A DNA stretch of 64,000 nucleotides. It comes from a bacterium (GTDB lineage: Bacteria; SZUA-182; DTGQ01; JBLIRR01). The stretch spans positions 3,286 to 67,285 of the forward strand of contig JBLIRR010000029.1 in assembly GCA_049472395.1 (NCBI GenBank). Direction: 5' to 3'. Positions 33,001 to 49,961 of this stretch are shown here, piece by piece. Each line of letters begins with the position of its first letter. The stretch's first letter is position 1. The translations under genes and the position numbers were made by a program. The notes beneath the pieces were generated by a model that had not been told where the DNA came from, ran no database searches, and saw only the letters and a list, made by a program, of their open reading frames with translations.

Positions 33001-36000
33001 ACCATCACGATATATTGTCATCTTTAGTTCACTTCCAACAACCTTGCCTGAGATAATTGCTATATGAGGATCACCAACTGTTGCGGATATAGATATCTGT
33101 TCATCTGCGGATATAGATATCTGTTCATCTTCCGCGCAAACCAGGATATCTCCTTTCTTTTCAATAGAAATGTAGTAACTTTTCTTCCCATCATCAGGTT
33201 CTGTGACTGTTCCGTCAATTAGGCGGCCTTCCTCTTTATCAGCTTTGTATACGAAAGCAATGGTAAAATCTCCCTCAAAAAGTCTGTGTTCACCAGAATT
33301 GGGAATAGTAAGAGAGGTATTGTTAAATCGTATTACTGGCAGTCCATTTATCCCATCTACAATATATTCTGGTTGGAGAGATACTGTGTTTTGGATAGAC
33401 GAAATACCTTGTAAACTTAAATCATTCCATTGTTCGACGGTGTTTGTTTTTTCATTTCTTATGACACTCCGTGCGTCACTTGCATCCAAATGGAGAGAAG
33501 GTTTTTCTATAGAGCTTACTGATGATAAGGCAATCCCCCATTTACTCGATAAATGCTCCTCCAACTTCTCTTTTCTACTCCCTGATAATACTGAATCAAG
33601 CATGATAATCTCTCCGATATGGCATGTTGCTGTAATGCCTGCGCCAGGCCCAATTATAAGTGATTCTTGGTTGAAAGATATATCTGCGTTTACGAGTATT
33701 CTAGAATTATGCAACACGCCATCAATAAATAAATTAAGCGTGCCTGTTTCTTTATCCCTGGTAAGAATTGCCATATGAGGAATCTCTGATGTTGACTCTA
33801 TGGTAATAGTATCATTATTTATACGTGTAGTTAAATCTCCCTTCCCATTAAATGACAACCCAAAGTTATCCTTATTTGGATCAGCTCCTGCCACCAAATT
33901 ATTCTGCTCCTCGCCATTATTTGATTCCCCTGCTTTATATATAATGACAATAGTAAAATCATCATGAAGGATTGATTTTTTTATCTTTAACTGTGCTCCA
34001 TTCTCAAATCTTAAAAACGCATGTCCGCTTTTCTCTATTGTTATAAACCTTGGTTCAGAACCTGCTTCGTGCATTGCATCATTATTATTGCGGCTAAGAT
34101 CCTTCCATAATGTTATTGGGGTTTCATTATCAGGGCACTTGTCATCTCCGGCTATATTGTAAGCATCCAGATGCAGAACAGGAAGTTTTACACGGCCGAT
34201 ATGGAGCAGTTCAATAAGTTTATTCCTGTATGGATTATAGTTATCCGAATTATCCTGCGCACTATTTCTTAATTCATGTAAGAAATTATGATAGGTATCA
34301 GTGAAAAGACTCATTTGATCTGAGTCAAATTCCCTTATGGTATATGATATATAAGCCGGTGTTTCTGTTTCTATGGTATTATATACTAATTCCTTAAATT
34401 TACTATTACCAAAGCGTCCTGCTTTCTTCGGAATAATAAAAGTCAGCTTATATGAATAGGGATCTGGCTGATAGTCTTCTTCAATTTTTTCCGAACAGAT
34501 AAACTCTAATGGAAGGAAACCATCAGGTCGCAGGAGAATATGCTCAAGAATATGAAAGTTATCCTGTTCGTTTTTATCAGCGGAATTTTTTATATAGACA
34601 TCAAGTCCTAATTTTGAGGAGAGTATGTCCTTAAGACCATTGATATTATACCCTCCTACATCTTCTGCAAAATAATTATATGCTCTATTTCTATTTCTGC
34701 TCAGCCTGGGATAATTTTCCAAAAAATCTGCTTTAGCTTTCAAAAAATATGGTTTTTTCTCTTCCGGATCAAGGTCTATGAGCATATTATATTTATAGCC
34801 AAACAATGCATAATCAGCAAATTTCTCATTAAATTGAGCTAAAAGATGGTTTAAAATTCTATTTTTCCGTATAAAGGCATTTTCATTAGCATGTATACCT
34901 TCATTTTGATCATCTTCTATAAATTCGTAACCTTCTTCTATCTCAGGGAAATCTTCTTTCCATATGGATTCAGGAGGCAGTTGTGAGAAATACGTTTTAA
35001 GGATATCTTCCTTGTTTTGTCGAAAGGAAAAAATATCCTTAAAGCTATCAAGCTGTTTAAGATAATTAATGAGTATTTGTTCAAAAAATAATAAATACGC
35101 TCTTAACTGTTTTGCCTGTGCTCTCCTTCTATCATTAGCTGCAGAAGGAAGTCCGGTTTCGCTGATCCCGAAATTGGCCGGCAGCTTATATGCGAGTGGG
35201 TCATACGCGGTTAAATTTGAATATTCACCCAAAGATTCTTCTATATCCATTGCCGGATCATCAAATATCTCTGTTCTGCTTTGCTCTTTTAATTTTTCAA
35301 CTTTGTCTGTTACCTGATTTGCGCTCACGGGACACATGGTTTCATCTTTGAACACACGTATTCTTGTGCTATTAAAATCCTCTAATAACAAAGCCTTTGT
35401 ATCATCCAGCACGAGCGCCCATTCTTTTTTCTCTGTAAGCTCAGGGTGTGGTTTGTTTGAAATAAACAAATTTTTCACATCCTTCACCTCTTCATGAGCC
35501 ATTATGATACGAAGCAGGTCAGAAGTATGCAGCTCTCTTCTTTTTTCTCCACTGCCAAGCTCATCATCATCAATAAATCCGTTCTCAAGCTGGGGACCGT
35601 TGAATATTTCTTCTATTGATTTGCCCTTTTGGAACATCTTTTTTAGGCTATATTGTTTAATACGGGGCGAGATAAAACTCTCAAGATCAAAATATATTTT
35701 AGCCATCACTTCATCGGCATCGGCATCCTCATCGATCCTAATATCAGAAAACAGGGAAATAGTCTCCTGCTCCATAATATTAATCTTTACAAATTCTTCG
35801 CATATATTTCTATGATTATGAAGTATTTCTTTTACCTTACGCGTAAATGCCTCATTATCTTGTAGATAAACTATATTTTCATCTTTTATATCTTCATCTC
35901 TCTCAATATATACTCTATATAATCCGTTTAATGTAACTTTTTGAGAACCTGTCGCATAATCATATACTAGGGCATTGTTATCTTTATCGTAATAGAGAGT

Positions 36001-36339
36001 TGGCTTGGTATCTATAGCAGGAGTGAGCCAGGCGTTTTTCACACCGGGAATATCAATTAAGAGCTTTCTATAATCATTGATAGTGACGGGATTAACGGTT
36101 AATATTTCTCTCGGGGAGAAAAATTGTTGTCGTGTTCCCTCTTGTGAATTATCGGTAAGGATATTGTCTATGGGGAGGGATAACCGTGTTTCTAAATCTG
36201 TGATTGCAAAACAAAGCGTTTCAAAGATTGTAACACCCGGATCATGAACATTATAATCTGTCCATATATGACCGGTCATTGTCTGCAGGTATTTTAATCC
36301 CTCTTCTCGAAGTATTTCCCAATTGATTGTATTGTCCAT
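30046..36339 (-). CDS. eCIS baseplate protein Afp12-like, extended by five LamG/ConA-like repeats
   Basis: N-terminal WTDYNVHDPGVTI, DYRKLLID.PGVKNAW, RNICEEF, ILEHILLRP, DPYS; then five LHLDA...GEI...YLS.KW repeats. Confidence 0.88.
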   Translation of the reverse strand: MDNTINWEILREEGLKYLQTMTGHIWTDYNVHDPGVTIFETLCFAITDLETRLSLPIDNILTDNSQEGTRQQFFSPREILTVNPVTINDYRKLLIDIPGVKNAWLTPAIDTKPTLYYDKDNNALVYDYATGSQKVTLNGLYRVYIERDEDIKDENIVYLQDNEAFTRKVKEILHNHRNICEEFVKINIMEQETISLFSDIRIDEDADADEVMAKIYFDLESFISPRIKQYSLKKMFQKGKSIEEIFNGPQLENGFIDDDELGSGEKRRELHTSDLLRIIMAHEEVKDVKNLFISNKPHPELTEKKEWALVLDDTKALLLEDFNSTRIRVFKDETMCPVSANQVTDKVEKLKEQSRTEIFDDPAMDIEESLGEYSNLTAYDPLAYKLPANFGISETGLPSAANDRRRAQAKQLRAYLLFFEQILINYLKQLDSFKDIFSFRQNKEDILKTYFSQLPPESIWKEDFPEIEEGYEFIEDDQNEGIHANENAFIRKNRILNHLLAQFNEKFADYALFGYKYNMLIDLDPEEKKPYFLKAKADFLENYPRLSRNRNRAYNYFAEDVGGYNINGLKDILSSKLGLDVYIKNSADKNEQDNFHILEHILLRPDGFLPLEFICSEKIEEDYQPDPYSYKLTFIIPKKAGRFGNSKFKELVYNTIETETPAYISYTIREFDSDQMSLFTDTYHNFLHELRNSAQDNSDNYNPYRNKLIELLHIGRVKLPVLHLDAYNIAGDDKCPDNETPITLWKDLSRNNNDAMHEAGSEPRFITIEKSGHAFLRFENGAQLKIKKSILHDDFTIVIIYKAGESNNGEEQNNLVAGADPNKDNFGLSFNGKGDLTTRINNDTITIESTSEIPHMAILTRDKETGTLNLFIDGVLHNSRILVNADISFNQESLIIGPGAGITATCHIGEIIMLDSVLSGSRKEKLEEHLSSKWGIALSSVSSIEKPSLHLDASDARSVIRNEKTNTVEQWNDLSLQGISSIQNTVSLQPEYIVDGINGLPVIRFNNTSLTIPNSGEHRLFEGDFTIAFVYKADKEEGRLIDGTVTEPDDGKKSYYISIEKKGDILVCAEDEQISISADEQISISATVGDPHIAIISGKVVGSELKMTIYRDGKSFNSTTFSDSEAFSKGPDNLLIGQSRTREYDFIGDIGEIVIYNNALSIWKRQRLEEYLSIKWNIDISGINYIATPVLHLDASRQASVMDEEGPIIDKDSRVSQWVDLSYYGNNALQQSIYRRPAYTVDGINGLGAVTFTQEKINDSDFYEDSLNINRIIQDDFTIMVVFKPDVNFYLRQDSLGQDSDLDLNVNESTKWTEGAALIDADCSGLYNDFGLSIGQSEGKMVVMGGIGDRLTEDHTIKTRDLNFDNTHMIIFTRLKSTGEVKIYADGLLHAEADLRDGVILNDSRTIKIGAFNSEGIPFHGSIGEIILFDTHLTEGKRQQIEKYLSTKWRVPLTSLPIDITHCSLHLDAADTKSITKDSDNRVSEWYDVNDISEVVALQQILESQPLYSGESINGMAGIRFNNSFMNVTPDTTSYDDFTIAIVYKALSPGNIHPDWEYGAGIIDGYVEEYTLNHFGISINRNNMLTARIGINSIASSSLLDFPHIAIISRKRIDGEVKIYLDGLLVSTGNDFAPGASLNDSLELTIGAIHIPSDNPVSKGYFHGDIGEIVLLNEVIDTEARQYLEKYLSMKWRIDISGINAIVKPVLHLDASKIATVIKDDADNKISKWLDINGHNYDAVQADLDNQPIYRPDAYNGLGVVHFDSNYKNYLTLPRVVKDDFTVIVIYKTDTDLEISEYMPVSRDAFISIAGIDEPLSQTIWEELNNNGFIDDNGNVLSTFTPIEEGFTLDLNTTILDNARIEIESRIIAIVSESNDALRPVPQDAFTSIGGINETLSHALWNELKENGYIDGDGNVLPKFTLDTQDFSLVVNMENIIESAIINVLLTQNWFEGVGLFDGNCSGDPIDISKRDFGMLIGKEGTLIAGIGVIGESDYKIEANSSFGRMHIGIFTRKKDTGLVKLYVDKANPVQARFARNMSIKDSQRFTIGAVNTGGNYFKGDIAEIIVLDRVLSDDEIAKMQNYLSIKWGLDLNEALI
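33082..33129. repeat. Perfect 24-bp tandem duplication (DEQISISA x2) in the Afp12-like gene
   Basis: TGCGGATATAGATATCTGTTCATC occurs twice in tandem, in frame. Confidence 0.9.
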
Positions 36340-36366: not shown

Positions 36367-39300
36367 TTATGCTCCGAAATAAGAAACTTTTACTGTAATC
36401 TCTTCTGCGGATGTATTTTGAATTGTTAAATCAGCAGTATCATAATAAATATTAAAGGTTCCCCCATCTTGTTGGTCTGCCATTTCATCCCCCGATATCT
36501 TCGTAATCATATCTGTCCCATGGATTGCAAAAATCCCGGCTAGTGCGCTGCTCTCCGTGGTAATATGCACCATCAACATCCCCCTGGAATCGGCAGTCAA
36601 TGTAATATCCCTCACAACACTGGTATCAACTGCTTCAACTGAAATGTCTGTAAGTGCTTGTAAGTTTGCTTTGGCGGCTAAGGCAGTATCCATGGCTGCT
36701 TGATCTGCCTTGGTAGCTAAGGCCGTTTCCATTGCTGTTTGATCCGCCTTTTCAGCTAATGCTGCATCCATTGTTGTTGTATCTGCCTTTGTCGCTAAAG
36801 CACTATCCATTGCTGACTGATCCGCCTTGGCAGCTAATGCGGTTTCCATGGCCGCTTGATCCGCCTTAGCAGCTAATGCGGTTTCCATTACTGTTATATC
36901 TGCTTTGGTAGCCAATGCAGTATCCATCGCTGTTTGGTCTACTTTGGTAGCCAATGCTGATTCCATCGCCGCTTGATCCGCCTTTTCAGCTAATGCTGTT
37001 TCCATTACTGTTATATCTGCTTTGGTAGCCAATGCAGTATCCATCGCTGTTTGGTCTACTTTGGTAGCCAATGCTGATTCCATCGCTGCTTGATCCGCCT
37101 TTTCAGCTAATGCTGTATCCATTACTGTTATATCTGCCTTAGTGGCTAAGGCGCTGTCCATTGCCGTTTGATCTGCTTTAGCGGCTAAAGCCGTCTCCAT
37201 TGCTGTTTCATCTGCCTTGGTAGCTAAGGCCGCCTCCATTGTCGCTTGATCTGCCTTGGCAGCCAAAGCCGTTTCCATTGCCGTTTGATCCGCCTTTTCA
37301 GCTAGTGCTGCATCCATCGTTGCTTGATCTGCTTTAACAGCAAGTCCGTTATCAACATAAGTCTTTACTGCCTTTTGTGTTGGCAGTAGTGCATTACTGT
37401 TTTCATCTAAGGTTTCATTGTTGGAAATATTATTTATTTCTATATCAGAACCACCAAAACGTAAATTCCCATCTATAGTAATTGTATTGGTCCTTATTAT
37501 GCCTTTGCTAAATACGTTATTTTCTTCATTGATTACTAAATCATTATGTGCATCTGATACGGTTATCTGCGTGATATCCTGTTTTGTAATACTAAAGTTA
37601 TCTTTATACTCAGCAGCAAGTTCTTCCCAGAAAGCAAGAAGCTCATCGACTGTCCCTGATTTATTCGCCGGGTATTTGATAGTCATTATTTTGAGATCAT
37701 CAATTGAAATATCAAAAGTATTATTTCCCGCATCTTGAGATTGAATAACAACTCTTGGTGTATCATTTTGAGAGTCAAAATATCGAACGCAAATTCCATC
37801 AACACCCTGTGTTGTCGTATTGTATTCCTTAATGACTGCCACTAGAGTTTCTAGAGTTTCTTCCTGTTCTACTGCTATTTCACCAGCGGTCCCACGATCA
37901 GGGATATCAAAACCATGCGTGTCTGTATCCGCCTCCATAACATCCTGCCATGCCGCAAGAAGATTGGATACAGTTCGATTATCCGGATTTATTGGGTAGT
38001 TGATGGTTAATAATGTAGTATCAAAAATGAACGTAAAATTGTCACCACTCTCCTGCAATCTCACTGTCGCTTCTACCATGGGATCACTTGTAAATGTTAC
38101 AGAAAAACCCGCAATATCTGTTTGGCTATGGCTTCCATCTGTGGGAGTTAAGGATTTCTCCTGGACTACATTGATAGCTGTAGTATCCTGTGTCTCTTTA
38201 ATATCCCATCCATAGGTATCATTACCGAATGCCTTCCATTTTTTCCACGCATTATAAACATCTTGAGGTGTCTTCTCTATTTTACCAAGAGTAATCTCAA
38301 TAGTATAAAGAGAAACAGAGAATTGAATTTTTTCATCTGAACTTGGAGCTGCTGCTTTTATGGTTACTTCAGGCAGTTGATACATCTCTGAAGGACCTAT
38401 ATTAATTATTCTCAGCTCCCCTGTTTCATATTCTCTGACCACTTCATTTGTAAGAGTAAGGGATTCAGACGCATCATCAATCAGCCATTCTTTATCTCCT
38501 GTCTGTTGGATCTCAAAATATTGAGCCTCAATTTCATTATCCTGTTTCCATTTATCCCAATCCCTAAGGAGATTCTCAACAGTGCGAAATGTACTATCAT
38601 CAGGGTACATAATTGTTAATGTAATGCCGCTGATTATAAAATTAAACTTACTATTCGTTATATCATCATTTGCGCTGATAATTATTTGAGGTGTTTCAGA
38701 CCCAAATCCCGTATATACTATTCGAATTCCATTATCGGGAATTCTGAATTCTTTGAATACTACCCCCGAGGAATATAATCCTATTTCTGTATCCCTTATC
38801 TTCCATGAACCCACTCCTACTTTTCTGAATGAAAAACCCTCGGCGATTTCAGGATTATTTTTTTGAAAGACATTCCAGTCACTTATTAAATAGGCTATAT
38901 CCGAAGTATCATCATAAGTAACTGTTACTTCTTTATCATCACTGATGGTTATATCAAAATGGCCCTCTCCTGCGTTTACGGTTCCTTTGAATATGGTAAT
39001 TTTTGGCGAGATGTCCGCGGCTCCCTCAAATGATGCATATATCTTCGTACTTCCCAGAACTGCATTATTAAGGGCATTAAATAAACCATTAATACTAAAC
39101 GTCCCTTCACTTTCAAAATTTTTGACAGTTGCATTATTAGCAGTGAGAGAATCAAGCTCAATTGACTGTATATTGAGACTATTGACTGTAAGATTATCAA
39201 TGATCGTTAGATTTTCAATAGTTGTATTTCCTAGTTGAGCAGTATCCAATGCAGTAAAGGTGCCGCTCACACGTGCGCCGTTCTCAGCTTCTAACTCTTC

Positions 39301-40467
39301 CCCACTCACTATAGCGCCTGCTTGAGCGTGCAGGGCTTCGTCGGTAACAACAATTCCTTTATTCGCATACACTACACCATGCGCTGTGATACTTCCATCA
39401 CTGTCATTCCCAAGAATAACCTGACCATTAGCATTTAAGGGTGAATCAATAACGGATAATCCTTCCTGTGCCGTTAACAGACCTGTTTCTATGCTTCCTC
39501 CATTTCTTACCGTTAATCCATCCTCCGCTTTTAACTCTGCTCCGTTTACCAAAGCTCCTTTAATAGCCTTTAACACACCATTAATAGTGACATCACCATC
39601 TGTATCATTCCCAAGAACAACTTGCCCATTAGCATTCAGAGATGAATCAATAACAGAGACTCCTTCCTCTGCGGTTAATTCTGCTCCCTTCACTACAATT
39701 CCTTGTTTTGCTTCCAGGATTCCTGTTTCAATCACGATCCCATCATTTACTATTACCCCATTCTTAGCATCGAGCGCTAATCCGCTGACTTCGGCTCCGG
39801 CTTGAGCTTTTAAAGTCCCACTTTGTATTGTAGCTCCATTATTTACTGTTAATCCATTCTCTGCTTTTAGCTCTGCTCCATTAACTGTCGCTCCCATCGT
39901 GGCTTCTAACTTTGCACCATTGACTGTCGCACCTGTTGTTACTTCTAATTTGCCACCAATAGATACATCACTTTTCAAGTTCACAGTACCATCTACCGCA
40001 AGTTTATATGAATCAGGATCATCAGTGCCAATACCCATATTTCCATTTGATTCTATAACCAACGAAGCATTTCCTGATGTATCATCTACTCTTAAGGCAT
40101 TGTCAGCATCCGGAATTATATGAAGCGTGGCCTGGGGATCATCATTATTTATGCCAATGGCTCTATCTTCCCGTTTCATGAATAGTCTACTTGAGTTATT
40201 TGATGAAAAATTAAGGCCGTTTCGTTCCCCGTCTTCTGATTGGGCATTGATTCTCCAGGTAGGGGTATCTTTGCTGCTGCTAAAATCAAGAAATCTTCTG
40301 TTTAGACCTTGTTCGATGATTTCCATTGGTTTGCCTTTTTCCGAGGCACCAATACCATCTTCCGCAATATTTATCATAGAATCAATGAGATCTGCAAAAT
40401 CATCCTGGGTAGGTTTATTTCCAGTAGCAAACAGATCATATAATTCCTCTCTTTTTTTACTCGGCAT
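36367..40467 (-). CDS. eCIS long tail fibre (Afp13-like, fibre 2)
   Basis: N-terminal REELYDLFATGNKPTQDDFADLIDSMIN docking motif, GNMGIGT repeats, beta-rich repeats, PTQKAVKTYVD and a coiled-coil repeat. Confidence 0.82.
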   Translation of the reverse strand: MPSKKREELYDLFATGNKPTQDDFADLIDSMINIAEDGIGASEKGKPMEIIEQGLNRRFLDFSSSKDTPTWRINAQSEDGERNGLNFSSNNSSRLFMKREDRAIGINNDDPQATLHIIPDADNALRVDDTSGNASLVIESNGNMGIGTDDPDSYKLAVDGTVNLKSDVSIGGKLEVTTGATVNGAKLEATMGATVNGAELKAENGLTVNNGATIQSGTLKAQAGAEVSGLALDAKNGVIVNDGIVIETGILEAKQGIVVKGAELTAEEGVSVIDSSLNANGQVVLGNDTDGDVTINGVLKAIKGALVNGAELKAEDGLTVRNGGSIETGLLTAQEGLSVIDSPLNANGQVILGNDSDGSITAHGVVYANKGIVVTDEALHAQAGAIVSGEELEAENGARVSGTFTALDTAQLGNTTIENLTIIDNLTVNSLNIQSIELDSLTANNATVKNFESEGTFSINGLFNALNNAVLGSTKIYASFEGAADISPKITIFKGTVNAGEGHFDITISDDKEVTVTYDDTSDIAYLISDWNVFQKNNPEIAEGFSFRKVGVGSWKIRDTEIGLYSSGVVFKEFRIPDNGIRIVYTGFGSETPQIIISANDDITNSKFNFIISGITLTIMYPDDSTFRTVENLLRDWDKWKQDNEIEAQYFEIQQTGDKEWLIDDASESLTLTNEVVREYETGELRIINIGPSEMYQLPEVTIKAAAPSSDEKIQFSVSLYTIEITLGKIEKTPQDVYNAWKKWKAFGNDTYGWDIKETQDTTAINVVQEKSLTPTDGSHSQTDIAGFSVTFTSDPMVEATVRLQESGDNFTFIFDTTLLTINYPINPDNRTVSNLLAAWQDVMEADTDTHGFDIPDRGTAGEIAVEQEETLETLVAVIKEYNTTTQGVDGICVRYFDSQNDTPRVVIQSQDAGNNTFDISIDDLKIMTIKYPANKSGTVDELLAFWEELAAEYKDNFSITKQDITQITVSDAHNDLVINEENNVFSKGIIRTNTITIDGNLRFGGSDIEINNISNNETLDENSNALLPTQKAVKTYVDNGLAVKADQATMDAALAEKADQTAMETALAAKADQATMEAALATKADETAMETALAAKADQTAMDSALATKADITVMDTALAEKADQAAMESALATKVDQTAMDTALATKADITVMETALAEKADQAAMESALATKVDQTAMDTALATKADITVMETALAAKADQAAMETALAAKADQSAMDSALATKADTTTMDAALAEKADQTAMETALATKADQAAMDTALAAKANLQALTDISVEAVDTSVVRDITLTADSRGMLMVHITTESSALAGIFAIHGTDMITKISGDEMADQQDGGTFNIYYDTADLTIQNTSAEEITVKVSYFGA
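36673..37335 (-). repeat. 17 x 39-bp (13-aa) tandem repeat K(A/V)DxxxM(D/E)xALAx
   Basis: Counted from the translation; units 6-8 are nearly identical to units 9-11. Confidence 0.95.
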
Positions 40468-40567
40468 AGTTATTCTCCATTTGTCTGATTTGTTAATCAG
40501 CCATTCTAATTTTGACAGTTATTTCAACATGTGATTCGTCTAAAAGTAGAATCGCAGTTTGTTACTC

Positions 40568-40936
40568 CTATTTTTTTTCATAATCAATATCAACAACTTC
40601 CGATCTTGCTTTCTGGCGCTCTGTAAGCAGGGCTTGATATTCCTCGTCTGTCAGCGAAGTTGCTATTTCCATTTCCAGTTGTTCTCTGTGCCTGGTAATT
40701 TTCCAATCAGTCCCTCTTAGAATACTCCTGTTCTTTCTATTTTTTTCTTCCTGAATTTCTTCAGGACTCAATTCCGCTTCGATGAACGTGCCATCAACAT
40801 AAGCTTTTCCAAGTATTGTGAAGTCATCCTCAACACCCTCCACTTTCACCTGCGCCTCATTTTTATCGAAATAGTCTTCATTTACACGGACATCACTTAC
40901 TCCAACACATATATTATCCTTTAACTGTGCATACAT
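40568..40936 (-). CDS. Phage-type tail fibre assembly chaperone
   Basis: MYAQL..NICVGVS start and RSILRGTDWKITRHREQ...LTDEEYQALLTERQ..R; directly after fibre 1. Confidence 0.7.
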   Translation of the reverse strand: MYAQLKDNICVGVSDVRVNEDYFDKNEAQVKVEGVEDDFTILGKAYVDGTFIEAELSPEEIQEEKNRKNRSILRGTDWKITRHREQLEMEIATSLTDEEYQALLTERQKARSEVVDIDYEKK

Positions 40937-40948
40937 TTTATCTCTTCC

Positions 40949-42709
40949 TTATTTGATCCATAATCCATAAAAAGCGACAATTCCATATGCCCGTTGTTCA
41001 CTATTACCCACCCAGCAACGGACACGATCATGATATTTAATTCCATAACAGGCGAGAGTATCATTTCCGTCAACACCTCCGGCAAAATATATCCTACACG
41101 GTGATACTGAAAAACAACGTAAATGAGCCATAGTATAACCAGCAGGTGGATAGACATCCACATAGGAATCATACCCATTCCAAATACGCCCCCCTGACCA
41201 CCCTTGGTTAGCGTAGTAAAGTCTATTATCACAATAATAAGAGGGATGTGGTATTTTGGCATCTAGATTTGCAATTTGAGAATCAACATATTGCTTTATC
41301 GCCCCTTCTGTCGGAATAGAGCTATTATCGTTATCATTAACTGTCGTGACAATATGAGAAACAGGTTGCCCCCCATCGTCCAATCTTAAATTTCCTTTAA
41401 CAGTTAAGTCACTGCTTATGCTCACAGAATCCGATATATTGACCGAACCAATAGTTGATCTTACCGTGCCATTGAGATTGACATAATCAGAGGTTGAATT
41501 TCCTAATGTAGCTGTTCCATATACATTTAAATCACGATTTTGATTGGGATCCCCTATTACCACATTATCATCTATGGTTACATCTGCACTGCCCGCTCTT
41601 TGCACTGTCCCGTTAAGATATATATGGTCATTGCCCTCATTATTCCCTAACGTATTTGTTCCAAGTACGGTTAAATCACCCTTCACATCCACTCGTGGTG
41701 AATTTGGGTCCCTGTTTACCGTCAAGATTTCATTTATTTCAAGCTCATGCTGCTCTTCACCAAGATCGGGATTACCCCCAGAGCGGACCCTGCCATTTAT
41801 GCTTACCACGTTATAGTGCTCAGGGGAAGGATTATATGTACCTAAGGTGGTGTCACCTTGGACCTGTAAATTACCGTCCGAGCCCTCTTGATTAGGATCG
41901 GCAATAACGTTGAGGTTATCCTTTATGGTTAAATCCTCTGTTTTTGATGTAAGAGGTGCATTTATTTCTATCCCCCCCACACCTTCGCCGTTGGAGAATA
42001 CCACACTCCCTCCAACCTCCAGATCACCTTCAACATAAAGATTATTGCTGCCCGGATTCCTGTTATCCCCTATTGCTACGCCACCCTGCACCGTTAATTC
42101 TGCCTTCGGTTCATCATATCCTATTCCCACATTTCCTTTATCATCGATAATAAAAGGTGTTGTGTCCTCGCTGACATCATCTACCCTCAGAGCATCTCCT
42201 CCTCCTGAACTATTAATGTGAAGCTTTGCGGCAGGTCGCTCATCTCCGTGCCCTATGCCAATCCCCACTTTGCCGTCAGAGGTGATAATGAAGGGTGTCT
42301 CATCATTTCCCTCATCATCCACCCTTAACGCATCTGTGGCGCTGGTCTGTTTAATATGTATTTTTGCTTCAGGCTCATCAGTATTTATTCCCACATTTCC
42401 TGTTTCCCGTTCTACATACAGCTTGCTCTTATTATCCGCTTTTATATTAAGCCCTTCTTTTGTTCCCTCTTCAGAACGTCCTGTGATTCTCCATCGTTTT
42501 CTCCCATCCTTATCCGAAAAATCAAGTATATTCTCCTCTTCTCCATGGGCTCTGAAACATACCGGATCATCTTCATCTTCAGATATATCGATACCATCAT
42601 CCAAAAGATTCAACTGGGATCTGATAAAATCCGCAAAATCCGCGCCTGTCGGGATCGCACCCTGTCTGAATTTATCATACAATTCTTTTCTCTTTCTTTT
42701 TTGTATCAT
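40949..42709 (-). CDS. eCIS tail fibre (Afp13-like, fibre 1) with a phage-type tip
   Basis: RKELYDKFRQGAIPTGADFADFI N-terminus, GNVGI repeats, PTEGAIKQYVD, tip VYPPAG...IYFAGGVDGND...NSEQR. Confidence 0.82.
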   Translation of the reverse strand: MIQKRKRKELYDKFRQGAIPTGADFADFIRSQLNLLDDGIDISEDEDDPVCFRAHGEEENILDFSDKDGRKRWRITGRSEEGTKEGLNIKADNKSKLYVERETGNVGINTDEPEAKIHIKQTSATDALRVDDEGNDETPFIITSDGKVGIGIGHGDERPAAKLHINSSGGGDALRVDDVSEDTTPFIIDDKGNVGIGYDEPKAELTVQGGVAIGDNRNPGSNNLYVEGDLEVGGSVVFSNGEGVGGIEINAPLTSKTEDLTIKDNLNVIADPNQEGSDGNLQVQGDTTLGTYNPSPEHYNVVSINGRVRSGGNPDLGEEQHELEINEILTVNRDPNSPRVDVKGDLTVLGTNTLGNNEGNDHIYLNGTVQRAGSADVTIDDNVVIGDPNQNRDLNVYGTATLGNSTSDYVNLNGTVRSTIGSVNISDSVSISSDLTVKGNLRLDDGGQPVSHIVTTVNDNDNSSIPTEGAIKQYVDSQIANLDAKIPHPSYYCDNRLYYANQGWSGGRIWNGYDSYVDVYPPAGYTMAHLRCFSVSPCRIYFAGGVDGNDTLACYGIKYHDRVRCWVGNSEQRAYGIVAFYGLWIK

Positions 42710-42731
42710 ACTTACTCTCTCCTATTATGCT

Positions 42732-45700
42732 CTAATAAACCATAAAGGGGTATTGACTTCTCCCATCAAATCCCACACCTGTTTTTAATATGGTAATAAT
42801 ACTTCCTTCAACTTCATTTATATTCGTTATTTCTTCCACACTGTAACTAAAATCGTCTGTCTCTTGCGCAAAGGAATCAAAATCTGCAGCAGAAAATTCT
42901 CTATTAAAACTAAATTGAGACAGATTACTCTGTAAATAGTCTTTAAAACTTTCTCCCTCTGAAACCATGAAATCAAAATCCTCCGCAAAAAGGTCAATGG
43001 TCGACAGTACGTTTCCTTTAGTATCAATATATCCTGCCTCTTTTAATGTATCCCAGATCTTCTGGGAGTCACCACGGGAAAATCCTGTTTCAATTTCTGT
43101 ATCATACTCTGTGCCTTCTACTATCCATTTTACCTTTATTGTCACAGCTACATTGGTAAAAATATACCGCAGGATGGGCCAGGCTTCTAATTCCATTGCC
43201 CCAATACCGGCAGCGAATACAGGGCCAGGCCTTGATATCCAAAAATCCGTTCCTATTGTCATATAACCGATTCCTCTAAAAGAGGCGGCATCATACAGAT
43301 CAGTCGTAATGACGTCTATAATATGACTTTCTGCGGACACTAAAAGTGAATCAGGATACTTTACTGTGGCGGCATTATCTTCTGTTAAAAAGAGAGGAAT
43401 AACCTCTGTGTAATTTTCATGGACTATTATCTGATAAAGAAGTGAAAAATTAGCAACATAATCTACATATTCTATGTTTTCTATATAGTTAATTACTGAG
43501 GAACTATACACAGAACTGCCGAAAGAAATTTCTGCTTCTTTCTCATATGCCCAGGGGGAGAGAAAACGTTTTATATCTTCATTGAGTTTGTTGATATAAA
43601 ATCCCTGATCATATCCTTCTTTAAATTTCACTGCCAGTCTATATTTAATTTCTTCAAACCGTGGATTTCTCACTTTCACACTGACCATGGGCGGCATATA
43701 CGATTGTATATACCTTTCAATGGCGCTCAGGATAGTGGCTGGAGTCTTGGGTTTCAAAGGGAAAAATGGTGCTGTATTCACATTCTTAAGAATGACGACT
43801 ATTATAATTTCACCTTTGTTCGAAGAATCTAGTATCTCAAGCTCGGTTTGAGATATACATTTTACTTTATATATCTGTGGGAATTGTGAGAGTATCATTT
43901 TTTCATAGTCATCTAATGTGAGCGCTCTATTTTTATGTTTTAACCTTTCACTCACCCGCACATAGAAATTCTCACTTTTTTCCTCTCTCTTGCCGTTAAA
44001 TGAGCTGTAGGGTTGCTCTACTTCTTTTATTGAATAATCCCTTTCAAGCATCTCTTTTATTGTACCGGCCCCGAGGGGTGTTTCTAAATGACTGGGATCA
44101 TTATCTTTATTGATATATTGTACACAAATTGACTGAGCACGGATGTCCAGGATATCAGGAACAGCGGTAATATTATTCAGGGCTTCCGCACGTATCCAGA
44201 GTCTTCCCGCGGGTAAAATTGTGTTTGTGGAAGTTGCCCCTTCCGGAATCATGAACCTGATAATACCTGTATCCTGCAATCCGAATGTTGTATCCTTCAA
44301 TATTTCCAATTGCTTAAATTGTATCCATTCATTAGAGGCCAGATAGCTCCATTGAATCTCCGGAATTGAATAGTTTACATCTCCACTGCCGGACATCATT
44401 TGAACGAGTATGGAAATAGTTTGAAGAGGCTTCAAATTTTTTATTCCAATCAAAAGATACCCCTGCTTATCATACTGAGTCAGGAAATAATCATCCTCAT
44501 CAAGTGGCCTTCCCATTTCCTTAAATCCGAAGGGATGGAATCGAAAAAGTTGAACAGGAACATCTGTAGTAGTATTGTTATCAGATACATTATCAAGGAG
44601 CATATTTGATGAAGCAGTATAATCAATGCTCATTGATTGGATTATGGGAGTATAGGGGGCAGGCAGAGTAAGCTGACTAATATCTATTTCATTCTCAGGC
44701 ATGGAAGGCAGCTTTCTTGCCTCGGGTATAACCGGTGGGTAATAGGGATCATTCTTTACTCGTGCTTCTGCTTCCGCAATCTTTGCTGCTTTTATTGAAG
44801 CTTCTCGCGCCTTTATTTCCTGCGCTACCGCCTTATAATTATTTTCAGCCAGAACACTCTCCTGTGATGCACGGGTAACCTCATTTCTTAAGTCTGCATA
44901 AAGATCTTTCATAAATCCCTGATTGCAGAGCTCCATCTTATAGTAGCGCGGCCAATGAAGAGGATCTTTTGGAAAATCTTCATTTTCTGAAAATAACTCA
45001 CCCTGGTATGTCTGATTATCAAAATCATTATAGGACAATGTCTTCTTAAACAGCATTTGAGGCTCTTCCGAGATGTTTAGCCAGGTGCGTTGATCGAGAA
45101 ATTTGAGCGCTACTTCAAAATCATTATTTTTAATGGTCCCTGCTTTCTCTAATCCGCAATGGGAATAAGCATAATAGTAGGTCTCCATATCCGGAAGTTC
45201 TGCTTCTGGAGTGAGTTCTCCTCCTGCCCATGTGAAATGAATATGCATTGAATCCAGTTTCTTCTCGCATATATCCCTGTGGGCAAAATAAAATCTGGCC
45301 GATACGTCAGGGGTAAGACCAAAGGGATGAAAAGGATTTTGAGGATTAATCATTGCCACATCACCACGCATCTTAATATCCATGAGCCCTTTTACCGACA
45401 CACTAAGATCGATTCGTTCCATACAAATAGATTTGAAATATTTATAAAAAAAAGCTTCACTTACGTTTAAAATTTTTATTACCGGATAAGGTGAAAACCT
45501 ATCTATTTGTAATGGCACGACCGAAGGAAATTCCCCATCAAGAGCTATGGCGAATTTAAGAGCATTTAAACAGATCGCATCCTTTTCATAAAGGGCAATT
45601 GTATCATAGGATTCAATAGCTCCTGCATATTCAATAGTCACATTGTTTTTATCCATTCTCTCAGTAATTGAAAATATTTCACCATTCTCCCATACTATCT

Positions 45701-48700
45701 TTTTTTCTCTATCATCATCAGTAAAATCAACTATTTGTTCAATCTCTAGAGTAACATTATTTCTATATCCCCTATAGGTGACACAAATACCATTCCCCGC
45801 TCCTGCATTATATTCTCTTACTATGTCCCCTGTGTTAAGCAATTTGGATTTCGACCGTTTCTCAAGTATGAGTGACGTATCTATAATTTCAAAACCCAAA
45901 AGATGATTTTCTGCACTTTGCTTCCATTTATTCCATTCTTTTAAAAGAGCAATGATAGTTCGTTTATCTCTTCTCTTTGGATATTTGATTGTCAGGGATT
46001 CTTCGATATAAAAATCATTAAACTGATCATAACTGGAGAGAACTGATATCTCGAAGGTATCATTTTCATTCTCTTCCATGGTCACCTCAGGTTCTGTTCC
46101 CTCAGGACCGGTATAATCAACGGTAAATCCGTTCACGTCGCTTGTTTTATATTCAAAAAACCTCTGATTTATCGGATCCGTAATCTCTGTCACATCTCTT
46201 ACCTCTGATGTGAGATCTTGCTGCGTTATTCCTGTTATTTCCCATTTCCCTGTGCCTGATTGTTCAATTGAGAATTCCACAAATGAATCTGCCTCATTTT
46301 CCCATGCATTAATGAGGTTTTCTACTGTACGATTTTCTCGGATGGTTGGATATTTAATAAATAATATCTTGAGATTGTTCGGATAATCGTTTGAAAGATG
46401 AAACGCAAAGGTTTCCGTATCGTTTTCTTGGATAACAACCTTTGCCTTTGGTACTTCGGAAAAAGGTGGAATTGGATCTGGACCGGAAGGTTTATATTTC
46501 ACACGGAATCCATCAGGATCTATGGTACAGACATAATTTAGCTCATCAAGGAAATTAACTATTAAGGGTTCAGCACCCCATCCCTTTCCCCATTGTGCAT
46601 TTTCTTCTTTTCTTATAAGAAAGAACCCATGCTTTTTGTATTCCTTGTTCCATGTGCTTAATAGCTCCTGTACATGACGTACCTGGTATTCCTTCTGAAT
46701 TGCATCATCATCCTCGGTTAGCAGGGGTGGATAGGTGATTGTTAATTGTTTTGTCATTTTATTATTATGGGTGGCATCTATCACATCACTAAAATTAAAC
46801 TTAAATTCAGTTGTAGTCTTGTCTTTTACAAATTCAATAATCGCATTTTCAAACTCCTCTGAGAGTTTATACATGGCAATAATACCAGCCTCATCAATAG
46901 TACATTCCACTATTCGGTTCTCTGAAGGCTGTAATTCCTTTTCAGTTCTGGCTATTATTTTCCATAAGCCATCTCCCATTTGTTCAATATCAAAATTACC
47001 AGGGTCATTTAATTCTGAAGTTTTCCACTCAATCCATGATTCCACAAGATCATGCGCTGATACTACACTTATTGAGGGATATTTGATGGTGAGTATCTGT
47101 TCATTATTTATCTCAAACTCAAATAGATCAATACTATTCTCTTTAAGAATAAGTGTGGGTTGGTCTGCTTCCGGCCCTTTATACCATACCCGGATTCCGT
47201 TCCCATACAGATTAGTGAGTTCACATTTCTTAATCTGTATATCTACCTGAGTTAACCTCATCTGATTAACAGGAGCTGCTTCCCATATATGGCTATCTTT
47301 ACTTTCAATATGAAAGCCTTTTGGATTATTTTCTTCCTTTTCTATCCATGCCTGCCACTCTGCAGTAATCTGGTTTACTGTTTTTGAAACCCTGCCCGGA
47401 GTAATTGTTAACGTATCGCCTGATACCAAAAACCGAGCATTTTCATCTTCTATCGAGGCATCCTCAATAATAAGATCTGCCTGATCTTGCAGGCGGCCTC
47501 TGTAGGTAATACGTATACCTTTATCTTCAAGTGATTCATATCTCTTTATTATCTCACCTGTCTTCTCTATTTCCTTTGATAAAGGTGATACATCCCACTC
47601 AGCTGTACCTGTTTTGTTAATCTCAAATCTTCCCTGATCATTAAGGGGATTGTCTTTCCAGGCTTCCCATGCTGCATGAAGATCATGAGCTGTAGATCCT
47701 TCCGGATATCGAATGCGTATATCTCGATCTGTTACCTCAAATTCAAACTCATCCTTCGCAGAATACATTTCGGAAATATAAAGATCGTGTATATCCTGAT
47801 TATCTTCAAATTCTACATATTCCGGTTCAATACTCTCCCATACTTTGTTGATCAATAACAGCTCTTTTTCATCGATTACACCAAAGCCTCCTCGCGCAAT
47901 ACTACCGCAGTAACTTACATCAACCTCGCTTGCATTGATATATTTCTTTATAAGAAATATTTTACCTGTCATATCGACAAAATAGTTACCCTCATAATGC
48001 TCATCAAATGTTTCTACTAAACTTTTCACATTAAGCGCATATTCGTTAATATCCAATTCTTCTTTTAACTCTGCTACAAACCTTTTGGGAACTAATTTTG
48101 ATATCAACTTAGTTGTATCCGTGGGATAGCTTAAATTCATCGATTGTAGATAAATCTTATTTTTTTTCTCATCAAACCTTGCTATCTTATAGACCTTGCT
48201 ATTTGTAAATACGATGTATTTATCAATACTGCTCGCATCAAAAACATCATACTTTTCAATATCACATACAAGATTACTCCTTTCCCGGTCGTATGTTTTA
48301 ACCTCTGGTTTTATGATGAATTTTCCTATTTTGAAATCGACATGATCCGCTTTTTTAAAGCCGCCGGCTATACTAAGATAAGCATTAAATATATCGCTCT
48401 TTTGCGCTAAAAGCGCTGAAAGGTTTTCGTAATCTATGGTGCCCTGTTTACAGGAGATTACCATTTCGATGTTTCTTGTGCCCTCATGTAATTGCAGCAA
48501 TGGGGAGCTTACAGCAAATCCCATTGTAATATTTTCTGACGATTCTGCTTTTGCGGATTTTCCAAAGGTGTGAAACTGCTCGATCCTCTCATCTTCATCC
48601 AGAGAAAAAATAGTATCAGTATAAAGCCCTTCTATTGTCTCAGCGCCAATCGCCGGATAGTGATACTCCCTCTTTTTAGCCCATGCTGTTTCAAGTAGTG

Positions 48701-49961
48701 CATATACCTCATCCCCGGCAATCCTGCTTAAGCTGAGATCCTTTTTCTCCATAATGACTCTAAAATCATCAACAGTCATACATAATTTTTTTTCTATATA
48801 TTTTCTCGCTGCCTCATTATTTGCTGTATATAAATGTTCTAACCTACTGATATCGTCAGGCATCTTGTAGAGCATATTCCCTGGATAGGGTTCTCCAAAG
48901 GCAAACTCCATCATGGCTTCAAATCCCTGGTTTTTATGAATCTCCTTAAGTTGAGCCCTTCGAGTGCGTGCTATTCTCTCTTTATGAACATCTTCAAGTA
49001 TTCTGTAAGCTTTCTCCCACTCAGAATCCTCAGGATATGTGATACCAACATAGCCTCTATTCATTTCTCTATAATAAACATCCAGGCAATAGAGGAAATC
49101 TTTTAAATATCTAAAACAGAGAGATTCAAAAATATAGCGTGCATCACTTTTATCTAACTCATCTTTTTCTTTCCCCTTAATTCTTTCATAGAGTTCGGTT
49201 CTTAAATAGGGAGCATCAACCTCGATCATAGTGCCATAGGCAGTATAATAGTCTGGCAAAGATTCCACACTACCCAATGCAAGACATAGTATTTTCTCAA
49301 ATCCACGATCACCCATATTATTGTTTATATGAACAGATTTTATATCGCTTGTGGTTTTATGGAAATGCATTGTTTTTATATCTGAAATCTCTGCATTATT
49401 CAGGACAATATCTTCTTGTATCTCATAATGCAGATCAGCGCCTCTGCCATCTTTACCCGCATACAAAAGTGTGCCTTTTTTTACCAAGTGTTCTTTCACG
49501 TTCTGGGCGAGTTTGAATATGACATGCACCTGGTCAGGAACTTCTTCTTTTTCTTCGAGTTTTAACACATTTTTGTAAAAAAACTCCACATTCTTTTCAG
49601 TTAACTCTGCAAACTTACCTTTAGGATAGGTGAGTAATTTTAGGAAAGCTAAAAATAATCCCCTGTGCGGCTTAGAATATTTTAAGAATTCTTCATTACT
49701 ATCTCTGAAAATATCAGGGTCTTTGGCAAATTCAGCGAACTTTGCAATCTCTTCCTCATCATCTAGAAAATCTAAAAATGATGACCAAGAACCTTCCACT
49801 TTATTTTCTTCATTATAAAAAGAAAGCTTTTTCGCGTATTCTCTTGCATACCTTAACAGATCCACAATGGAGCGTTCTTCAACAGAGACATACTCTGGCT
49901 GTAAGGCTGGTATTAATTTATCATGCTGGCTTGTTCCTGATCTATTTTTTCTTTCAGTCAT
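42732..49961 (-). CDS. Giant eCIS baseplate J-like protein (Afp11-like, 2409 aa)
   Basis: GTSQ..L.P.Y..V.ERS, PHRGLFLAFLKL, PDQVH, LYAGKD; C-terminal DTTFGL...GII, RVSERLKHKNRA, FLSPWAY, GIGYM.IG.DF. Confidence 0.92.
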   Translation of the reverse strand: MTERKNRSGTSQHDKLIPALQPEYVSVEERSIVDLLRYAREYAKKLSFYNEENKVEGSWSSFLDFLDDEEEIAKFAEFAKDPDIFRDSNEEFLKYSKPHRGLFLAFLKLLTYPKGKFAELTEKNVEFFYKNVLKLEEKEEVPDQVHVIFKLAQNVKEHLVKKGTLLYAGKDGRGADLHYEIQEDIVLNNAEISDIKTMHFHKTTSDIKSVHINNNMGDRGFEKILCLALGSVESLPDYYTAYGTMIEVDAPYLRTELYERIKGKEKDELDKSDARYIFESLCFRYLKDFLYCLDVYYREMNRGYVGITYPEDSEWEKAYRILEDVHKERIARTRRAQLKEIHKNQGFEAMMEFAFGEPYPGNMLYKMPDDISRLEHLYTANNEAARKYIEKKLCMTVDDFRVIMEKKDLSLSRIAGDEVYALLETAWAKKREYHYPAIGAETIEGLYTDTIFSLDEDERIEQFHTFGKSAKAESSENITMGFAVSSPLLQLHEGTRNIEMVISCKQGTIDYENLSALLAQKSDIFNAYLSIAGGFKKADHVDFKIGKFIIKPEVKTYDRERSNLVCDIEKYDVFDASSIDKYIVFTNSKVYKIARFDEKKNKIYLQSMNLSYPTDTTKLISKLVPKRFVAELKEELDINEYALNVKSLVETFDEHYEGNYFVDMTGKIFLIKKYINASEVDVSYCGSIARGGFGVIDEKELLLINKVWESIEPEYVEFEDNQDIHDLYISEMYSAKDEFEFEVTDRDIRIRYPEGSTAHDLHAAWEAWKDNPLNDQGRFEINKTGTAEWDVSPLSKEIEKTGEIIKRYESLEDKGIRITYRGRLQDQADLIIEDASIEDENARFLVSGDTLTITPGRVSKTVNQITAEWQAWIEKEENNPKGFHIESKDSHIWEAAPVNQMRLTQVDIQIKKCELTNLYGNGIRVWYKGPEADQPTLILKENSIDLFEFEINNEQILTIKYPSISVVSAHDLVESWIEWKTSELNDPGNFDIEQMGDGLWKIIARTEKELQPSENRIVECTIDEAGIIAMYKLSEEFENAIIEFVKDKTTTEFKFNFSDVIDATHNNKMTKQLTITYPPLLTEDDDAIQKEYQVRHVQELLSTWNKEYKKHGFFLIRKEENAQWGKGWGAEPLIVNFLDELNYVCTIDPDGFRVKYKPSGPDPIPPFSEVPKAKVVIQENDTETFAFHLSNDYPNNLKILFIKYPTIRENRTVENLINAWENEADSFVEFSIEQSGTGKWEITGITQQDLTSEVRDVTEITDPINQRFFEYKTSDVNGFTVDYTGPEGTEPEVTMEENENDTFEISVLSSYDQFNDFYIEESLTIKYPKRRDKRTIIALLKEWNKWKQSAENHLLGFEIIDTSLILEKRSKSKLLNTGDIVREYNAGAGNGICVTYRGYRNNVTLEIEQIVDFTDDDREKKIVWENGEIFSITERMDKNNVTIEYAGAIESYDTIALYEKDAICLNALKFAIALDGEFPSVVPLQIDRFSPYPVIKILNVSEAFFYKYFKSICMERIDLSVSVKGLMDIKMRGDVAMINPQNPFHPFGLTPDVSARFYFAHRDICEKKLDSMHIHFTWAGGELTPEAELPDMETYYYAYSHCGLEKAGTIKNNDFEVALKFLDQRTWLNISEEPQMLFKKTLSYNDFDNQTYQGELFSENEDFPKDPLHWPRYYKMELCNQGFMKDLYADLRNEVTRASQESVLAENNYKAVAQEIKAREASIKAAKIAEAEARVKNDPYYPPVIPEARKLPSMPENEIDISQLTLPAPYTPIIQSMSIDYTASSNMLLDNVSDNNTTTDVPVQLFRFHPFGFKEMGRPLDEDDYFLTQYDKQGYLLIGIKNLKPLQTISILVQMMSGSGDVNYSIPEIQWSYLASNEWIQFKQLEILKDTTFGLQDTGIIRFMIPEGATSTNTILPAGRLWIRAEALNNITAVPDILDIRAQSICVQYINKDNDPSHLETPLGAGTIKEMLERDYSIKEVEQPYSSFNGKREEKSENFYVRVSERLKHKNRALTLDDYEKMILSQFPQIYKVKCISQTELEILDSSNKGEIIIVVILKNVNTAPFFPLKPKTPATILSAIERYIQSYMPPMVSVKVRNPRFEEIKYRLAVKFKEGYDQGFYINKLNEDIKRFLSPWAYEKEAEISFGSSVYSSSVINYIENIEYVDYVANFSLLYQIIVHENYTEVIPLFLTEDNAATVKYPDSLLVSAESHIIDVITTDLYDAASFRGIGYMTIGTDFWISRPGPVFAAGIGAMELEAWPILRYIFTNVAVTIKVKWIVEGTEYDTEIETGFSRGDSQKIWDTLKEAGYIDTKGNVLSTIDLFAEDFDFMVSEGESFKDYLQSNLSQFSFNREFSAADFDSFAQETDDFSYSVEEITNINEVEGSIITILKTGVGFDGRSQYPFMVY

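Follow-up and report, generated by a model that had tools for sequence, protein, structure and literature searches.

The stretch analysed here (64,000 nt, positions 3,286 to 67,285 of contig JBLIRR010000029.1, assembly GCA_049472395.1, GTDB lineage SZUA-182; hereafter the window) holds a complete operon for an extracellular contractile injection system (eCIS) on its minus strand, as judged from open reading frame (ORF), Pfam and domain assignments. Two of its products, the Afp11-like baseplate wedge protein and the long tail fibre, contain tandem copies of a repeat that an earlier note, made from the sequence alone, had regarded as one module. The locus raises the question of whether these copies are a single domain, where else this domain is found, and what it contributes to the particle. 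The repeated unit appears to be an undescribed, self-folding domain of about 105 residues that is so far found only in eCIS structural proteins, and we lean slightly towards a role as an acidic, non-enzymatic scaffold or extension module on the outside of the particle. The two genes that host the unit are the following.

42732-49961, minus strand: Afp11/Alg11-like baseplate wedge protein, 2409 aa (P0001), with the longer of the two unit arrays
36367-40467, minus strand: long tail fibre (fibre 2), 1366 aa (P0002), five units

The 2409-aa protein is identified as an Afp11/Alg11 (gp6-like wedge) protein by its Pfam Baseplate_J domain (aa 1964-2135, E 9.5e-07), its homology and its location in an eCIS operon. 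Its best sequence match in the PDB is AlgoCIS Alg11 (7aeb_G, E 2.7e-121); further matches are Cis11 (2.1e-99), Pvc11 (9.1e-39) and Afp11 (3.3e-20). P0002 is an eCIS tail fibre by its N-terminal anchor, its position downstream of Afp11 and its elongated repeat architecture. It consists of the N-terminal anchor motif, Gly-rich repeats, five units, a collar motif, 13-residue repeats and a C-terminal tip, and its orthologues share 33-47% identity over the full length.

Copies of the unit in the window

A jackhmmer search was seeded with the second fibre unit (F2) alone and run against all six-frame window ORFs of at least 60 aa. It converged on two ORFs only, Afp11 and fibre 2. In the fibre, five units were found with independent E-values (i-E) of 3e-19 to 4e-42, and in Afp11 there were five strong matches (3e-17 to 2e-30) besides a weak fourth unit and a partial seventh. 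As a non-circular control, a hidden Markov model (HMM) was built from the five fibre units only. It matched Afp11 at E 4e-44, with five units below an i-E of 2e-7 and unit A4 at 7.5 only. At E<=10 it had no match among the 222 other window ORFs or among 1000 shuffled versions of the Afp11 repeat region. F2 alone matches Afp11 at E 3.7e-30. By both searches, the copies in the two proteins are homologous and the shared repeat is real. The i-E values of the individual units below were obtained by hmmsearch with a profile that contains the window units.

47520-47849, minus strand: A1, Afp11 aa 705-814, i-E 6.7e-24
47199-47519, minus strand: A2, Afp11 aa 815-921, i-E 3e-28
46887-47198, minus strand: A3, Afp11 aa 922-1025, i-E 8.5e-33, the best-conserved Afp11 unit
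46512-46886, minus strand: A4, Afp11 aa 1026-1150, i-E 8.3e-24, divergent, with extra residues after the fourth strand
46131-46511, minus strand: A5, Afp11 aa 1151-1277, i-E 2.6e-27, contains IKYPTIRENRTVENLINAW
45792-46130, minus strand: A6, Afp11 aa 1278-1390, i-E 8.1e-28
45525-45791, minus strand: A7, Afp11 aa 1391-1479, i-E 7.2e-12, degenerate, covers profile positions 1-81 of 108
38731-39060, minus strand: F1, fibre aa 470-579, i-E 4e-25
38419-38730, minus strand: F2, fibre aa 580-683, i-E 7.7e-32, contains IMYPDDSTFRTVENLLRDW, modelled alone
38110-38418, minus strand: F3, fibre aa 684-786, i-E 2.1e-23
37798-38109, minus strand: F4, fibre aa 787-890, i-E 1.2e-26
37486-37797, minus strand: F5, fibre aa 891-994, i-E 1.6e-29

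The fibre array (F1-F5) spans aa 470-994 (window 37486-39060). The Afp11 array comprises A1-A6 at aa 705-1390 and the degenerate A7 at aa 1391-1479 (window 45525-47849). All 12 copies align, with 22-36% identity to F2 and a mean column identity of 28%, and the 12 unit matches in the whole 6.5-Mb assembly are these same 12 copies. The two strings that the earlier note quoted as examples are located in Afp11 unit 5 and fibre unit 2. It had placed the repeats at Afp11 aa 734-1404 and fibre aa 473-965, which is the right region, although the arrays extend slightly further. Its count of about five in the fibre is exactly five, and its count of about six in Afp11 corresponds to six full units, to which a degenerate seventh has to be added. 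The assumed period of about 90 aa was too short: fibre units recur every 103-105 aa and Afp11 units every 104-127 aa (104-107 aa for A1-A3).

Searches for a known family

The family had not been recognised from the sequence, and the database searches give it no name either. Searching Pfam with all 12 units at E<=10 returned scattered single matches, the best at 0.012, and no family was found in more than one of the 12 units. With NCBIfam, the whole Afp11 and fibre sequences gave nothing in the arrays; the sole match was TIGR02243 in the baseplate-J part of Afp11 (aa 1964-2172). No PHROGs family matched either array. The fibre search against the PDB found no family (one protein disulfide isomerase chain at E 0.7), and the ESM Atlas returned unnamed clusters only, with DUF3383 scoring 0.84, below the level of a lead. 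A thioredoxin-like fold was considered and rejected: only one of the 12 units has a weak, isolated match to the Pfam Thioredoxin model (E 0.015), and the aligned position has YP...T in place of a cysteine pair or CxxC motif. Where homologues carry a source name at all, it is 'hypothetical protein', 'baseplate J/gp47 family protein' or 'phage tail sheath family protein'. The unit is thus a domain family that is named by none of Pfam, NCBIfam and PHROGs.

Extra domains on the sheaths, wedges and fibres of contractile injection systems (CIS) are already known (PMC8894135, PMC8894136). A recent catalogue of eCIS tail fibres (PMC12923769, 2026) lists 5 anchor domains, 37 novel domains and 1177 fold families. 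Its main text mentions neither the unit nor a module shared between fibre, Afp11 and sheath, and the word 'sheath' occurs 0 times in it. As the catalogue surveys eCIS fibre domains, it may already list the window unit anonymously as a shaft domain. What appears to be new is the domain family, probably with a new or strongly diverged fold, and its use in three components.

Distribution among other systems

The unit profile was scanned with HMMER over 1.84 billion cluster representatives at E<=1e-3. It matched 48 proteins, 25 of them at 1e-10 or better. All 48 were classed by comparison with local profiles, one set for the sheath core and others for the ends of Afp11 and of the fibre. Pfam, run on 37 of the 47 foreign matches, agrees with this classification.

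Fibres of the window type: 16 of 48 (nine with 5 units, seven with 2-3)
Afp11-like proteins or fragments: 5 of 48
Sheath proteins or fragments with 1-4 units: 19 of 48
Unclassified fragments: 4 of 48
No convincing single unit, probably false: 4 of 48

Forty of the 44 non-doubtful matches are eCIS fibres, Afp11-like proteins or sheaths, and none of the 48 is a recognisable protein of another kind. Named sources include a Bacillota metagenome-assembled genome (MAG), an uncultured Shewanella, a Phenylobacterium MAG, Moorena, Okeania, Methylobacter and Pseudomonadota MAGs. Systems of at least seven bacterial groups carry the unit, which is found on three different structural proteins. The family is rare, since the clusters at 90% identity hold 1-5 members each. 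None of the 40 nearest genomes carries the unit; few relatives have been sampled, and these are distant.

Species genomes were scanned with a 5-fibre alignment, which gave nine loci. In the Desulfobacterales, SAR324 and Bacillota loci that reach far enough, a fibre with 2-5 units follows an Afp11 of 2430-2600 aa that carries about six. Five of these genomes were searched as a whole, and in all five the units are found only in one Afp11-like and one fibre ORF. The window system belongs to the same AlgoCIS-related lineage with a wedge protein of about 2400 residues. Metagenomes were scanned with the sheath alignment, and 80 of 494 loci were kept, of which 19 encode a one-unit sheath. The 80 loci contain 32 Afp11 ORFs, and all of these are free of units, including those in seven loci with a unit-bearing sheath. 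Placement therefore seems to follow one of two patterns, either on the sheath or on Afp11 together with the fibre, where sheath-type systems were judged on their sheath and Afp11 ORFs.

The joint occurrence on Afp11 and fibre bears on the suggestion, made in the earlier note, that the module forms a fibre-baseplate docking interface. The two arrays would pair like a zipper and keep the long fibre attached to, or parked on, the baseplate until the particle fires. The units of Afp11 and fibre co-occur in six of six genomes (the window and the five others), their periods are similar (103-105 aa in the fibre, 104-107 aa in A1-A3), and the position-specific conservation described below would fit fixed partners. 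However, the six genomes represent one eCIS lineage, so that the co-occurrence may reflect shared descent and not independent events. An Afp11 with six units is also combined with a fibre of two units, in L014 and in P0004 and P0018 (probably on the same contigs). The N-terminal anchor motif of fibre 2 is common to the short fibre of the window operon (fibre 1), which is free of units, and to the fibres at nine loci of other genomes; it is present on a unit-free Chitinophagales fibre of 372 aa, next to a unit-free Afp11 of 1104 aa. The unit-free Afp11 ORFs of the sheath-type systems likewise speak against docking. A complex prediction of Afp11 aa 705-1150 with fibre aa 470-994 scored 0.00 (mark 0.32), which argues neither for nor against binding. 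On these comparisons, docking seems quite improbable.

Insertion sites in sheath and Afp11

Fourteen unit-bearing sheaths were aligned with the window sheath. They are collinear with it and differ by an insertion at one loop, around window residues 224-247.

54807-54878, minus strand: window sheath loop, aa 224-247; 1-4 units in homologues, none here

Residues 1-224 of the window sheath correspond to AlgoCIS Alg2 1-254, and residues 247-454 to Alg2 486-692, so that about 230 residues of Alg2 fall at the unit-insertion site. We take this insert (255-485) to be domain IV, from the loop ranges 288-320 and 430-446 given in PMC8894135. Domains III and IV of Alg2 are described there as extending outwards from the sheath wall. 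AlgoCIS Alg2 (PDB 7adz) is thus a case of outward extra domains on an eCIS sheath at the same insertion site as the units in homologues. In an alignment against the sheath profile, the Alg2 insert proved dissimilar to the unit, and it is listed by neither structural search. By this homology, units at the sheath site would be exposed to the outside; those of Afp11 and fibre are presumably exposed as well.

In the window sheath, the loop at the unit site has 16 residues. With its flanks, SVLVNIAASIDFEPAIELGDN, it fits the spacing of the unit's first two strands and may be the remnant of a lost unit; the hhalign probability for this loop (9.5%) is partly an alignment artefact.

The window Afp11 aligns with Alg11 in three blocks: 6-202 with 13-217, 1467-1572 with 354-468, and 1765-2221 with 581-1036. 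Its array (705-1479) lies within about 1260 residues that have no Alg11 counterpart and is located directly N-terminal of the stretch homologous to Alg11 354-468, into which the end of A7 runs. This stretch belongs to the cage: Alg11 domain IV (residues 278-643) forms the spike cage (PMC8894135). The Afp11 array may thus project from the cage region. Large insertions of the wedge protein around the spike, as in the window Afp11, are known from the Alg11 spike cage and the Anabaena Cis11 cage domain (PMC8894135, PMC8894136). The Alg11 cage is composed of two modules resembling carbohydrate-binding modules (CBMs; PMC8894135), whereas the window protein has six to seven alpha/beta units of another, unnamed family.

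Predicted fold and structural relatives

F2 was modelled with AlphaFold2 from a shallow alignment of the 12 window units. The model has a predicted local distance difference test score (pLDDT) of 84.9 and a predicted template modelling score (pTM) of 0.79. Its order of elements is four strands, a helix of 14 residues and a short one of 4 residues, and three strands, the last of which is of low confidence. A second model covers the five fibre units; here, 10 orthologous rows were added, which gave a shallow alignment of 11 rows. It has a pLDDT of 89.3 and a pTM of 0.71, and the order of strands and helices is repeated in each unit. At the unit junctions, the last strand and the first strand of the next unit are adjacent and long (e.g. 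202-213 and 216-223). A pTM of 0.71 for a chain of five domains suggests fixed relative positions of the units, that is, a rod.

Foldseek found no usable match in the PDB (best E 0.73 for F2, TM <=0.1 for the five-unit model) and nothing usable among the viral models of BFVD, where the best hit (E 0.088) was an uncharacterised crAss-like phage protein. Exhaustive structural alignment to 48,161 PDB representatives placed sheath proteins on top for both models. A comparison with sheath insertion domains had been recommended in the earlier note, and it was productive in sequence as well, as members of the unit's own family are inserted in the sheaths of other eCIS.

The protrusion domains of sheaths are the sole structural resemblance of the unit that recurs. 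They comprise phiCD508 gp55 at about 99-201 (9gb1), DSY3957 94-179 (3hxl), the Halogeometricum CIS sheath 91-208 (9ezm) and the phage P1 sheath 102-238 (8jaj). These domains and the unit both have about 90-105 residues and consist of beta strands with one helix. The protruding domain, which we take to be the outermost domain of the sheath, is moreover an insertion in the sheath protein, as is the unit in 19 database proteins. In T4 gp18, domain I (residues 98-188) is described as a six-stranded barrel plus a helix (PMC3004832). The odds that the unit descended from the protruding domain of the sheath are about even. Whatever its kinship to this domain, the fold as modelled would have no close solved relative.

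A sheath-derived origin leads to a more far-reaching idea, namely that the outermost sheath domain was co-opted as a brick for general use and, in one eCIS lineage, moved off the sheath to form matched stiff rods on the cage-forming baseplate protein and the long fibre. These rods would act as a mechanical unit, for example as a fibre-parking zipper whose release serves as the trigger for firing. We regard this as a long shot. If true, rods derived from the sheath would be a new form of fibre-baseplate coupling and the first use of a sheath-derived domain outside the sheath.

Conservation, surface and age of the arrays

Over 141 units, the conserved positions are W59 (100%, 141/141), F73 (95%), I41 (92%), L39, G8, Y6 and P14. 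They are exclusively hydrophobic, Gly or Pro and look like core or turn sites. There is neither a conserved polar residue nor a catalytic signature across the 141 units. The units are acidic, with a median net charge of -6 to -7, and those of the window range from -5 to -18. Between orthologues, the Afp11 units share 46-58% identity, compared with 49-70% in the neighbouring regions and 45-56% in the C-terminal tail. The fibre units have a median identity of 40.5%, and gaps in the units of both proteins amount to at most 2%. In each protein, the units diverge at about the rate of the flanking regions.

These data bear on the possibility that the units are adhesins, i.e. glycan- or protein-binding modules displayed multivalently on fibre, cage or sheath, in the manner of the AlgoCIS cage CBMs or of the immunoglobulin (Ig)-like decoration domains of phages. 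The outward-facing sites are consistent with this, and the copy number per particle would be high. In addition, attachment has been proposed by the AlgoCIS authors for the CBMs of the Alg11 cage (PMC8894135), and most eCIS fibre domains are assigned to binding in the catalogue (PMC12923769). Against it, no polar surface residue is conserved in the units, and they are not hypervariable but diverge like their structural flanks. The structural searches returned no lectin, CBM or Ig fold, an absence that does not exclude one; both models have a helix between strands 4 and 5. The strong and uniform negative charge would also disfavour generic adhesion to negatively charged envelopes. We therefore consider an adhesin function unlikely, even though the suggestion of a binding or armour surface in the earlier note is compatible with the data.

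A tree of the 141 units was reconstructed, for which clade supports are from FastTree only. The units of 5-unit fibres and 6-unit Afp11 proteins group by array position across phyla, with supports of 0.81-0.997, and the position-specific clades span Desulfobacterales, SAR324, Bacillota and the window genome. The clades of A1, A2, F3 and F4 are exclusive. Those of A3, A5, A6, F1 and F5 also hold equivalents, all of them from truncated or shorter proteins, and F2 is not clean. The first unit of 2-unit fibres groups with F1, and the second adjoins the F5 clade. Since the position-specific clades extend across phyla, the arrays are old and each position has been kept. One homologous module is shared by the two components, as had been assumed, but a recent expansion, which the word 'amplified' in the earlier note suggests, is not supported.

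Proposed role of the unit

The unit is best read, though by a narrow preference, as an acidic building block without enzymatic function on the outward-facing parts of the particle. This reading is based on its occurrence in structural proteins only, its outward sites, its conserved core and its otherwise free acidic surface. Depending on the lineage, 1-4 copies are carried in the outer loop of the sheath subunit, or an array of 6-7 units next to the cage region of Afp11 is combined with one of 2-5 units in the fibre shaft. Tandem units would be joined by the inter-unit hairpin, and an array would form a stiff rod, unlike beads on a string. In the fibre, the array would lengthen and stiffen the part of the shaft that follows the Gly-rich repeats and comes before the collar and the 13-residue repeats. 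On Afp11, it might add six arms or an enlarged acidic shell around the spike cage. Together, the arrays may determine how far the particle reaches and what geometry it takes at the target surface.

Several points weigh against this role or against the link to the sheath. Both models were built from shallow alignments (12 and 11 rows), and the rod was modelled as a monomer, while fibres are normally trimers. The location of the arrays in the particle is deduced from the homology to AlgoCIS and from the sheath case. The unit profile matched four of 177,635 PDB sequences, all of them adhesins (best E 0.15) and none a sheath. An hhalign comparison of the unit profile with the sheath core of the lineage yielded the insertion loop only; the low probability quoted above is partly an artefact because MAFFT had put the first strands of the units in those columns. 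Finally, the position-specific conservation could equally reflect protein-protein contacts or a ligand, which would favour docking or the formation of lattices.

In the latter case, the units would mediate contacts between particles or between particle and cell and thereby give ordered arrays or anchoring, as do the extensions of Alg12 and Cis12/13 homologues in metamorphosis-associated contractile structures (MACs), type VI secretion system subtype iv (T6SSiv) and thylakoid-anchored CIS. The published superstructures and anchoring of CIS depend on extended baseplate and fibre proteins (PMC8894135, PMC8894136), and like-with-like contacts would be conceivable for a single domain that is present on sheath, baseplate and fibre. 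Against this stand the lack of evidence for self-association, the strong negative charge, which would disfavour like-with-like packing unless counter-ions are present, and inspection of the arrays by eye, in which no transmembrane or amphipathic element was seen. Such lattice contacts appear highly improbable.

For the favoured role as an outer scaffold or extension module, the placement of the unit bears on how eCIS particles gain new outer architecture. Extra domains such as cages, crowns, anchors and arrays distinguish contractile injection systems and are their least understood parts. The family described here, which no database names, has confident models and lacks a clear structural relative. 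It also draws attention to an AlgoCIS-related lineage that is so far unstudied and has a wedge protein of 2400 residues. Both the small domain and the particle are concrete targets for structural biology.

Operon context and neighbouring genes

Besides the two hosts of the unit, the eCIS operon comprises the following genes.

54183-55547, minus strand: sheath
between the sheath and VgrG-like genes in the listed order: three tube-family proteins
50519-52324, minus strand: VgrG-like spike
50114-50506, minus strand: gp25-like protein
40949-42709, minus strand: short fibre (fibre 1), 586 aa (P0059), with an N-terminal anchor motif of the fibre 2 type and 0 units
40568-40936, minus strand: 122-aa protein
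30046-36339, minus strand: 2097-aa protein (P0003) with four Laminin_G_3 domains, Afp12-like by eye
further members: tape measure, Pvc16-like protein and AAA ATPase

Fibre 1 gave no unit match in the window and whole-genome searches. The 122-aa protein downstream of it (40568-40936) matches PHROG tail-fibre-assembly families (phrog_188, E 9e-8), and the two genes look like a fibre/chaperone pair inserted between Afp11 and the long fibre. In fibre 2, the region that follows the collar (window 36667-37332) is encoded by a 39-bp repeat (13 residues) in 17.1 tandem copies with 73% matches. These repeats are rich in Ala, Lys, Asp, Gln and Thr and heptad-like, and the region differs in length among the fibre orthologues (median 42% gaps).

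P0003 has four Laminin_G_3 (concanavalin-like) domains (E 2.3e-30) and an N-terminus that looked Afp12-like by eye, and could be a candidate lectin-type decoration of the baseplate periphery. A second shared module, with the motif S..IW..L...GYID..GNVL, is found once in the C-terminal tail of Afp11 (aa 2293-2329, window 42975-43085) and twice in P0003 (aa 1817-1847, window 30799-30891, and about aa 1891-1930, window about 30550-30670). The Afp11 copy shares 52% identity with P0003 over 31 residues (E 1.7e-5), and the two P0003 copies match each other at E 4e-15.

Downstream of the AAA ATPase gene, a 592-aa protein (22732-24510, minus strand) matches the N-terminal domain of the Tse3 T6SS muramidase (PF22120, E 4.6e-9) and is a candidate cargo or effector of the window eCIS. 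The 2.1 kb upstream of the sheath gene (55548-57651) contain no ORF of at least 90 aa. An ORF of 82 aa in this region (56863-57111, minus strand) covers only positions 2-54 of the 79-position Pfam family eCIS_core (former DUF4157; E 3.6e-7) and is probably the truncated remnant of a cargo-type gene. Further upstream of the operon are a radical-SAM protein (57652-58530, minus strand) and a protein of at least 1603 aa (59171-63982, minus strand) with a right-handed beta-helix, Chlamydia PMP repeats and PKD domains.

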